From positions 21,609,582-21,673,581 of the forward strand of contig CM119264.1 in the NCBI GenBank assembly GCA_051294375.1: DNA of 64,000 nt, read 5' to 3'. Shown here piece after piece: positions 48,101 through 51,100 of the stretch (position 1 is its first letter; the number at the start of each line of letters is the position of its first letter). This DNA is from Paraspadella gotoi (Eukaryota; Animalia; Chaetognatha). Under the pieces are notes generated by a model, which saw nothing but the letters and a program-made list of their open reading frames with translations, did not search any database and was not told the origin of the DNA. A program made the position numbers and the translations under genes.

Positions 48101-51100
48101 TATCCACAGAAATAATTCGAATTTAAAGAAAAGAAAAAGTGAACAATTGTACTAAGTTTATATTTGCAGTTCCCTCGCCTCGCTCTATCATTTAAAATTT
48201 CTCTTCGAATTTTTAATTTTTAATTACTCTTCGAATGGCCCGGGCGACCCAGAGTCCCAGACCCAATTCAAAAGCGATTTCGGGCGAACGCGTTTCGTGA
48301 CTCTTTCTCCCTCTCATCGGCGGAGACCTGAGGAGTCCTGGGAGCCGGTTCTGGTGGCTTTGGTGGTTTCGGTGTCTGGAGGTTTCGTCGACGGAGAACC
48401 GGTCATTAAATCGATCCCCTTTTGCGGCGACGGCGACGACGACGACGACGACGACGACGACAGCCACTCGTCCTCGTTTGACGAGATATTCGACGTTCAA
48501 AATTTTATTCTTCTGTTTTATTATTTGTTCCCTTTTATATATTTGTCGTCGAAAGTTTTTTTTTTTTTTGACAATTTTGTATTCATTATCATTGCTTTAC
48601 TTACCGTTCGTCCTTCTTCTTCGTCTCACCTTTTCTTTTCTCCCTCACCACGTTTCCCCCAATTCGAGCACAGATTTTCTTCAATTTCAACCCTAAAACG
48701 GACTTTGAGACTCTCTCTCTTTCTCTCTCTCTCTCTCTCTCTCTCTCTCTCTCTCTCTCTCTCTCTCTCTCTCTTTGAGACTCCAAGCCCAGATGAGCCT
48801 TTTCTCTCTCTCTCTCTCTTTCTTTCTTTCTTTCCTTTGAATCAATTTGGTCGAACGATTTCGATTAGCGAAACGAGAGAGATTGAATTTTTTCCGCGTG
48901 CAAAAACACGTTGCCACGATAATAACAGTGATTCTTCTGGAAAGCAACAACCATTTCTGTCTTTGCGTGAATGCGGATGTCACGTCCGGGTAAAATTGTC
49001 GCAATTACAAAGAGGCCTTGGCTTCTCAGACTGACTCAGTCGAGTTATTTTTAATTGTAAAATGATTAATATTCCGTAAAACCAAACTCGAACAATTATT
49101 TTGTTAAAATCTTGTACCAGCGTCTTTATTGAGATCAGGACAAGTCCTCGAGAGGAGCCGACTTTTTTTTTCTCCGACGATTTTTTATTTCCAGTTCGTG
49201 ACAGTTTTATCTTTGCCACCTTTTTTAAAAAACCAGAAAAACAATCTTCCCTTCGCCCAAAAATGTTCTTTTTTTTTCTCGTTTCTCTGCCTTTTTTTTT
49301 TCCTTCAACCTTTGACGTTTTCTTCTTCTCAGGAAAGACGAAAGTTCCGACGGTAAAGCCGACAATCCCGAAGCATCACCCTTGATCACCGAGAATCGCA
49401 GAGAATCACAAAACAAAAAAACTTTTCTTCCGCCCGTCTCACCGATCATCTCAAAAAAAGTTGGCCAACGGAAACACGAAATGATTTTTATAAGACATTG
49501 GAAACCAACTGAAAGGGAGAATCATTGTTGATAAAAAAAAAAAGAACGAACAGACTAAAACTTCGTCATTTACGAAACCCCAAAAAATATACTGGATTCG
49601 ATCTCAATACGGATGAGCTTGTTTTGAAGAAGATCTGAGATTTTAACTTTCTCTCCGTCGGGAAATCGACTCGACTCAATTCCTGGAAATCCTTCTCCAC
49701 GCCTAAACGGAAAGATTGAAAGAGCGAGGCGACCGACTGATTAGGGTTAGCAGCTGCAAGAACTCAGTTTGCAACAGCGGGCAGCAGCGCCCAAAGATGT
49801 CGAAAAAGTACGAGCTGTTGTTTCGTCTTTTGTTGTGCGGCGACGCAGCCGTCGGGAAATCCTGCCTCCTGTGGAGATTTGCAGACGACGACTTCAACCC
49901 CAATCACCTGGCAACTATAGGTGAGTATCTTTCCCACTCTGATTCACTTTTCACTTTTCACTGAAGAGATACCTATGGTGGACTAAAATCCACCATCCGT
50001 TCATCAGCGGCCATTGGTGCCGGAGGCAAGTCATTCGCCTCCCAACCCAAAGGTCCGGGGTTCTTGCCCGGTGGTCGCCTAGAAGTTAAAATGGACGAGG
50101 CGCTTAACCCGCCTGTAACACGGTGTTACAGTCTGATCCAAAGCTCAGGGACTGCTTATATTGAACGGTTCTGTCACTAACGCATAATAATAATTACTGT
50201 CTCTTCATACCACAACCCCCGGAGACCCAAAAAAGCTCGCTATTCAGTGACCCTGAATTTCCGAAACCGTGAGCTCATTCTCTTAAATTTTCTCAAACCT
50301 TTTGTTTGTTTTTTTTCTCTGAAGCGACATCCGTGAAAAGGTAGAAAAATTTTCGAAAAGTGCGATTTTAGTTTTTGTTAGAAGGATAAAGACGATGTGG
50401 AGGAAACATTTGGGCGGAGTATAATTCGCTATTTGTTGCACACAAACTCTCAATCCCTCTCTCTCTCTCTCTTTCTCCCTCTCTTTCTCCCTCTCTTTCT
50501 CCCTCTCTCTCTCTCTCTCCTCTCCTCTCTCTCTCTTCTCTCTCTCTTCTCTCTCTCTCTCTCTCTCTCTCTCTGCTCCTCTCTCTATCTTCTCTCTCTC
50601 TCCCCAGCCCGAAACTCAGGCGATATAACGAATAGGTTGAGTGCTGAGCCTTCAAATTTTCTTACGACGCCCAACTTTCCTTTCTTCCCCCCCCCCTCTG
50701 TCCAGGCATCGATTTTAAGCTGAAGACGATGCGGATAGACGAGAAGACAGTGAAGATCAATGTTGGGACACGGCGGGACAAGAGCGCTACGAGAGCCTGT
50801 CGCACAACTACTACCGACGCGCGGAGGGGATCATTCTGGTGAGTTGATGGGGGAAGGGTTGATGGGGAGGGGTTAAAAACCGAAAAGAAAGGATAAATGG
50901 AAATTAAGGGTAAAGAACGTCAGCTCACTTTTAAACCCATAAGATATTTTTATTATTCTCGTTTAGAACAAAGTTTGAGAGAGATTTAACCGATTTTTAT
51001 TTCATAGTGAAACGGACATGTTAATCTCTCTTCAAACTTTGTTCTAAATCAAATCACAACGAAACAGAAAAGAAAAAACACAATTATTCATCAATTATTC

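Follow-up and report, generated by a model that had tools for sequence, protein, structure and literature searches.

The window analysed here, by which we mean the whole 64,000-nt stretch of the Paraspadella gotoi assembly GCA_051294375.1 (CM119264.1, 21,609,582-21,673,581), is animal DNA, as judged from a twitchin-like kinase exon, a rhodopsin-family receptor and the exons of a Rab-family gene. The kinase exon (nearest twitchin, E 7e-26) is part of a twitchin/titin-like gene of many exons at 27600-63700 on the minus strand, and the receptor lies at 16043-18884 on the plus strand. The first exon of the Rab-family gene matches Pfam Ras with an E value of 2.8e-7 and a later exon does so with 1.3e-12. 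Exon 2 needs a one-base frame change at 50755-50770 to reach the WDTAGQE motif, which probably reflects an indel in the assembly; similar ones occur in the third unit of a tandem array described below. The first intron (49921-50705, GT..AG) contains, in sense and starting 53 nt behind its donor site, a 234-bp repeat element with the following parts.

49797..49920, plus strand: exon 1 of the Rab-family gene
49970..49973, plus strand: left copy of the target site duplication, TACC, 4 bp
49974..50207, plus strand: solo LTR of family B, 234 bp, with TA..CA ends
49975..49996, plus strand: start hairpin of the solo LTR, 8 of 8 pairs
49997..50003, plus strand: 5' strand of the outer helix around head and twister, its partner being 50162-50168 (7 of 7 pairs)
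50007..50078, plus strand: tRNA-derived head with acceptor-like stem, box A-like word (50015-50026), box B (50059-50069) and T-arm
50081..50156, plus strand: decayed type-P5 twister fold, with P5 at 50081-50086/50151-50156 and L4 at 50137-50144
50208..50211, plus strand: right copy of the target site duplication, TACC, 4 bp

A preliminary description had flagged 50007..50157 as a solitary element. The element is real but extends from 49974 to 50207, and its ends, the TACC duplication, the P5 stem and the outer helix had been missed. It had also not been recognised as the solo LTR of a TRIM, which the family ends, the primer binding site (PBS), polypurine tract (PPT) and 4-bp duplications show it to be. 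The eight bases at 49962-49969, directly before the solo LTR, match the reverse complement of the LTR's final eight, whether by chance or through a target preference.

Contigs from four sequencing runs (X1, X2, X3 and X9, from three studies of one organism) were aligned at 80% likeness; the stretch is contained in nine runs in three studies of one organism. Family B contigs numbered 6,614, 12,636, 1,764 and 848 in the four runs. In run X1 the summed contig depth, a total over contigs that overlap and so no measure of copy number, rises from 14-36 on the flank to ~1e6 at 49974 and drops to 0 at 50207. All four runs contain contigs with unlike flanks on both sides, 125, 170, 60 and 34 of them before 49974 and 216, 207, 78 and 52 behind 50207, and family B is clearly abundant and dispersed. 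In the window it is present only as the solo LTR, and its interior is deduced from contigs that run on behind 50208 and begin like the PBS of the array (25, 30 and 13 contigs in X1, X2 and X3, agreement 0.53-0.64); the six such contigs of X9 have no PBS. Exact pattern scans gave 0 and 0 matches in metagenome contigs and 0 and 0 in viral contigs.

A sister family, family A, forms a tandem array elsewhere in the window.

10392-10395 and 12007-12010, plus strand: 4-bp duplication ACAT on both outer sides of the array
10396..12006, plus strand: tandem TRIM array of family A, four LTRs and three internal parts, TG..CA ends
10823..11057, plus strand: family A LTR (LTR2), 235 bp, with head and fully paired twister (10939-11019)
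11058..11246, plus strand: family A internal part, 189 bp, noncoding, with PBS from 11059 and PPT at 11236-11244

The array, known from one assembly, has the order LTR-I-LTR-I-LTR-I-LTR, and its third unit is full of indels. A one-base gap separates each LTR from the PBS that follows it, and a two-base gap lies between the purine tract and the next LTR. A single element of 235+189+235 bp has a short noncoding interior and falls below the TRIM limit of ~1.3 kb. Family A LTRs also occur in unlike surroundings, with unlike flanks before 10823 in 27, 10 and 5 contigs of X2, X3 and X9 and behind 11057 in 27 contigs of X2; summed depth in X1 is 15,471-49,222 over the LTR against 509-4,833 over the internal part. 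Contig joints that go back 425/426 were considered as evidence of tandem copies and rejected, because the query stretch itself has the PPT-LTR junction twice. The PBS is nearest to the tRNA-Trp site of Gypsy-32_NVi and Helenus-2_SyJa (PMC10886601, Figure S2), from which, compared by eye, family B differs in one of 14 letters (13/14) and family A in four (10/14).

LTRs of both families share one layout of start hairpin, outer helix, head and twister. The array LTR opens with a hairpin of 7 bp, different in sequence, at the position equivalent to that of the solo hairpin, and in array LTR4 the outer helix forms 6 of 6 pairs with two two-sided changes relative to the solo LTR. The outer helix was spotted by inspection and is present also in the predicted fold. 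Both insertions with two flanks inside the window (TACC for the solo LTR, ACAT for the array) have a 4-bp duplication. The sharp family ends, the sister array with its LTR-PBS-189 bp-PPT-LTR structure and these duplications together identify the solo element as an LTR of a Helenus-type TRIM, and a reading of it as a SINE was set aside on the array anatomy and the 4-bp duplications. We are confident that the family as a whole consists of twister-bearing Helenus-type LTRs; the flagged copy, taken singly, is a solo LTR in decay and nothing out of the ordinary.

The head had been described as a cleaner tRNA-Gly(CCC)-like structure. Its acceptor-like stem (50007-50013/50072-50078, 7 of 7 pairs with one G.U) and T-arm (50055-50059/50067-50071, 5 of 5) bear this out, but the anticodon stem has 3 of 5 pairs and the fold is not a cloverleaf. 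ARAGORN found no tRNA in the solo head, and an Rfam search with E up to 10 returned none for the solo or array copy; on these grounds a tRNA-Gly(CCC) gene was ruled out. In both heads a GGAGG/CCTCC hairpin joins the D-loop and anticodon regions (50022-50043 and 10882-10901) and replaces the cloverleaf. GGTTC, the T-arm and the acceptor-like stem are present in the heads of both families; the GGTTC of box B matches Helenus (PMC10886601), while box A departs from TRGCY at 1-2 places. At position 50065 in box B the solo LTR carries a letter that is in the minority among the aligned contigs. We regard the head as a promoter relic and predict it to be an RNA polymerase III promoter. A T4 run was found in neither family's LTR nor in the array unit, an absence that across 234-427 nt is not unlikely by chance.

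Behind the head the solo LTR carries the catalytic G and A of a twister at 50094-50095 and TAA at 50105-50107, with a 2-bp P1 and a predicted cut at 50105/50106 (numbering after PMC5113685 and PMC11662667). The pairings given in the preliminary description are all in the sequence, namely the acceptor-like stem, P3 (50113-50119/50125-50131, 7/7), P4 (50132-50136/50145-50149, 5/5 with one U.G) and the 2-bp pseudoknot (GC:GC, 2/2, vs AC:GT in the array), together with the TAA. Its report of damage to the 3-bp pseudoknot and to P2 is equally correct, each having 1 of 3 pairs. A P5 stem, with 5 of 6 pairs in the solo LTR and 7 of 7 in the array, closes the fold and so makes it a twister of type P5. 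Array LTR2 has 13 of 13 core pairs and a predicted cut at 10966/10967, and both LTR2 and LTR4 are complete in the N^AA cut site, general base G, both pseudoknots, P4/L4 and P5; array LTR1 has lost an A at the cut site. The solo copy passes only a relaxed descriptor (6 matches in the window vs 0.92 per resampled window), so that taken alone its twister fold is not beyond chance. The Rfam search with E up to 10 returned no twister for the solo or array copy.

The aligned contigs separate the state of this copy from that of its family. Among the differences listed, eight positions have the window's letter in the minority. The other letter makes up 92-99.9% of depth at 50065, 50083, 50090, 50092, 50098 and 50132, 80-98% at 50140 and 77-87% at 50182. 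Six of these positions lie in the twister, in P5 (50083), P2 (50090 and 50092), P4 (50132) and the 3-bp pseudoknot (50098 and 50140), and at each of the six the majority letter gives a Watson-Crick pair. The damage is therefore confined to this copy, or less probably to this assembly, as no single contig spans the locus, and family B retains the full twister fold by majority of summed depth. A family lacking the pseudoknot pairings had been named as evidence against the twister; at the two broken positions of the 3-bp pseudoknot 80-99.9% of summed depth pairs in all four runs. Among the differences listed, common variation in family B otherwise falls in the P3 loop and CpG sites. The same holds for family A, where it stays outside the core, and no majority change is seen over 10947-11015.

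The ribozyme of the solo copy is likely impaired, judging from its pairings, since pseudoknot residues were the most sensitive in the Osa-1-4 twister (PMC5113685). Calling it probably dead was nevertheless too strong, because natural twisters with two imperfections in the 3-bp pseudoknot still had a mean cleaved fraction of 0.55 vs 0.76, and imperfect P1 and P2 are tolerated among natural twisters (PMC11662667). Of the eight private differences, six fall within that third of the LTR which holds the twister (p 0.018 in a binomial test, a post hoc value from one locus), one of the six being common CpG decay. This is a hint of selection against the cutting of Rab pre-mRNA by a sense intronic copy.

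Comparison of the two families supports the claims that at least two exist and that structure has been kept through sequence change. Within the window the solo LTR and the array are 72% identical over 117 nt (E 6e-8). Eleven of the 22 homologous twister pairs differ from the array; seven of these 11 still pair, including all four with two-sided changes, and the outer helix adds two further two-sided changes. As P3 and the outer helix came to light on inspection, only the two changes in the 2-bp pseudoknot and P4 concern places chosen in advance. The twister fold behind a tRNA-derived head that had been proposed is thus upheld by both the pairings and the family contigs.

The window contains two further twister folds.

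14934-15039, plus strand: 14.9-kb twister fold, 13 of 13 core pairs, no tRNA head
31254-31348, plus strand: fourth twister-P5 fold (31.3 kb), 12 of 13 core pairs, found blind by a strict descriptor

The strict descriptor finds four folds in the window (array LTR2, array LTR4, 14966 and 31323) vs 1 in 60 resampled windows; it was written after the array and 14.9-kb folds had been seen, so only 31323 was found blind. The array, solo, 14.9-kb and 31.3-kb motifs together have 52 core cells, of which 48 pair. Both pseudoknots show two-sided changes, and three of the four unpaired cells belong to the solo copy. Shuffling gave a mean of 34.7 paired cells and reached the observed number in 0 of 20,000 trials, a figure that cannot be read as a probability, the motifs having been selected because they pair, and as three of the four satisfy a descriptor that demands pairing this control is no covariation test. 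The 14.9-kb motif was misplaced by automatic alignment, and its pairs were assigned by twister geometry.

Rfam Twister-P5 scores the 14.9-kb fold at 25.6 bits (E 0.35; gathering score 37.6 bits), and no convincing P5 was found for this motif. It heads a 3' tail common to three copies on the minus strand (26556-26636, 2142-2191 and 56380-56414), which are cut at different 5' points; this suggests that it belongs to another family. The 31.3-kb fold has a reversed 3-bp pseudoknot, a 5-bp P3 and a two-part P5. Upstream of it, at 31149-31250, are a start hairpin and a box A-like word, and the element is possibly a third LTR family. Neither a target duplication nor element ends were found for it, and Rfam gave no match for the fold, short-stretch searches returning only unrelated weak matches.

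The nearest known elements are the animal Helenus TRIMs (TRIMp3; Kojima 2024, PMC10886601), which have a tRNA-like LTR, PBS, PPT, 4-bp target site duplications, solo LTRs, tandem arrays and a Gypsy-like PBS. The present families resemble them in box A and B within the LTR, the noncoding interior, PBS, PPT, 4-bp duplications, solo LTRs and tandem arrays, and some published Helenus LTRs also begin with TA. Their Pol III transcription and mobilisation by Gypsy are unvalidated in the published families (PMC10886601). The difference lies in the twister fold behind the head. The Helenus paper does not mention twisters and has the word ribozyme once, in a reference title. When the consensus file of that paper was scanned for three twister loop words, no match lay in a twister setting, though other variants or words split between lines would escape such a scan. 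Helenus-2_SyJa and Helenus-2_SyUm from Synergus wasps (DataS1 of PMC10886601) share the tRNA-Trp PBS, and by eye their LTRs carry a type III hammerhead core with complementary loops directly behind the tRNA-like part, on which that paper makes no comment.

Plant LTR retrozymes (Cervera et al. 2016, PMC4918200) are likewise noncoding, with a self-cleaving fold in each LTR, PBS, PPT, 4-bp target site duplications, solo LTRs, multimers and a presumed Gypsy partner. The present family differs from them in its animal host, a predicted twister where plants have a type III hammerhead, a tRNA-type internal promoter, a length of ~425 nt against 600-1000 nt, a likely tRNA-Trp primer against tRNA-Met, and in that its circles are predicted from sequence. 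Rfam searches of the solo and array copies gave no hammerhead match. With a twister in place of the hammerhead, we infer that the family works like an LTR retrozyme and do not count it as a member. Plant retrozyme RNAs are also highly structured, whereas the natural array unit folds weakly: from LTR1 to LTR2 it folds slightly better than shuffles (z -1.6 as a circle, -2.0 as a linear molecule), and the array internal parts fold no better than shuffles (z 0.15 and 0.39).

The fold itself follows twister type P5 (Rfam RF02684) in the order P2'-G-A-T1-P1-U^AA-P2-T2-P3-P4/L4-P5, with both pseudoknots and the catalytic G and A. It departs from RF02684 in a 2-bp P1, a bulged 3-bp P2 and a 7-bp P3, lies below the Rfam threshold, and its cleavage is a prediction. 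In Schistosoma Sm-alpha (PMC6765202) a Pol III promoter is combined with a hammerhead in repeats, as here with a twister, but the elements are non-LTR. Perere-3 twister T-variants (PMC8501958) also place a twister in an animal retroelement, but at the 5' end of a non-LTR RTE element, and it is for RTE elements that twisters in animal retroelements have been described. LTR retrozymes are placed in plants with type III hammerheads and non-LTR retrozymes in animals (PMC7761336, PMC6765202), and a 2026 preprint (10.64898/2026.07.22.740005) divides them likewise. Our literature search, with most subscription journals outside its scope, turned up no published LTR or TRIM that carries a twister. The novelty is a type-P5 twister behind a promoter, which joins the Helenus TRIM and the LTR retrozyme.

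On balance we favour, with some reservation, an animal LTR retrozyme that spreads via a predicted RNA circle of ~425 nt. RNA polymerase III would start at the head of the 5' LTR, meet no T4 run and read into the 3' LTR, where cutting at U^AA by the twisters of both LTRs would release a unit of 424-427 nt. As the released unit would have no terminal repeat, a host RtcB-type ligase would be needed to close it into a circle; RtcB circularises animal retrozyme RNA in vitro (PMC7229834). A tRNA, likely tRNA-Trp, could then prime at the PBS, a Gypsy partner's reverse transcriptase could circle the template and yield LTR-I-LTR or longer multimers, and the integrase of that partner would leave the 4-bp duplication. 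Such a cycle corresponds to that of plant retrozymes, in which the circle accounts directly for multimers (PMC4918200). The solo copy would have arisen via LTR-LTR recombination or from a short cDNA and later lost six twister pairings. Weighing against the circle are the weak folding of the unit, twister folds that Rfam does not score and the lack of a PBS in the X9 contigs.

Formation of the covarying outer helix requires sequence that precedes the predicted Pol III start, so a primary transcript could form it in its 3' LTR and would be unable to do so in its 5' LTR. This makes linear copying the main rival, although we consider it rather unlikely. Here only the 3' twister would cut efficiently and make the 3' end of the Pol III transcript, and the RNA, with the head and half a twister at both ends as an R repeat of ~100 nt, would be copied by ordinary strand transfer. 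The missing T4 terminator in either LTR fits such an arrangement, many published Helenus LTRs carrying T runs behind the head when inspected by eye, as does the weak folding of the whole unit. On the other hand the whole of the twister core and P5 is downstream of the start, which leaves no obvious obstacle for the 5' copy; a circle would also allow the outer helix to form, across its joint; and multimers follow directly from a circle (PMC4918200).

It is improbable that the twister is a passenger or fossil captured by an ordinary Helenus TRIM, its fold now irrelevant to spread. The lack of an Rfam score for the fold, the other twister folds outside the family in the same window and the lost A at the cut site of array LTR1 speak for a passenger, but families only 72% alike retain the catalytic residues and both pseudoknots with two-sided changes, and the common variation of each family avoids the core for the P3 loop or CpG sites. 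A SINE-like or satellite element with tRNA head and ribozyme and a non-LTR partner would share the layout of Schistosoma Sm-alpha, a promoter followed by a ribozyme in tandem units (PMC6765202), but is very improbable and largely refuted by a start 33 nt upstream of the head with fixed ends on both sides, by the TG/TA..CA termini, PBS, PPT and 4-bp duplications, and by the animal non-LTR retrozymes themselves, which have no LTR, PBS or PPT and longer duplications (PMC7229834).

More speculatively, and with doubt prevailing, these may be unrecognised animal LTR retrozymes with their own Pol III promoter, that is, tRNA-Trp-primed Helenus TRIMs with a swappable ribozyme (twister here, hammerhead in Synergus), which would fill the cell with ~425-nt circles for Gypsy enzymes to copy and whose sense intronic copies would be selected to lose the cut. 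If so, twisters would have a second defined job in animals, the processing of an LTR element, besides that at the 5' end of RTE elements; LTR retrozymes would extend from plants to animals; and there would be an identifiable promoter, which retrozymes were said to lack. The matter bears on how a Pol III-driven TRIM comes by a template suited to copying by an LTR-type reverse transcriptase, and with a natural element of ~660 bp that has a promoter, a predicted ribozyme and a primer site, circle and linear copying can be tested directly against each other.

The window also holds copies of another dispersed repeat family, on both strands and with 70-84% identity, at 3110-3367, 19563-19809, 29623-29976, 38268-38579 and 47658-47854, and telomere-like ACCCTA repeats at 40308-40408.
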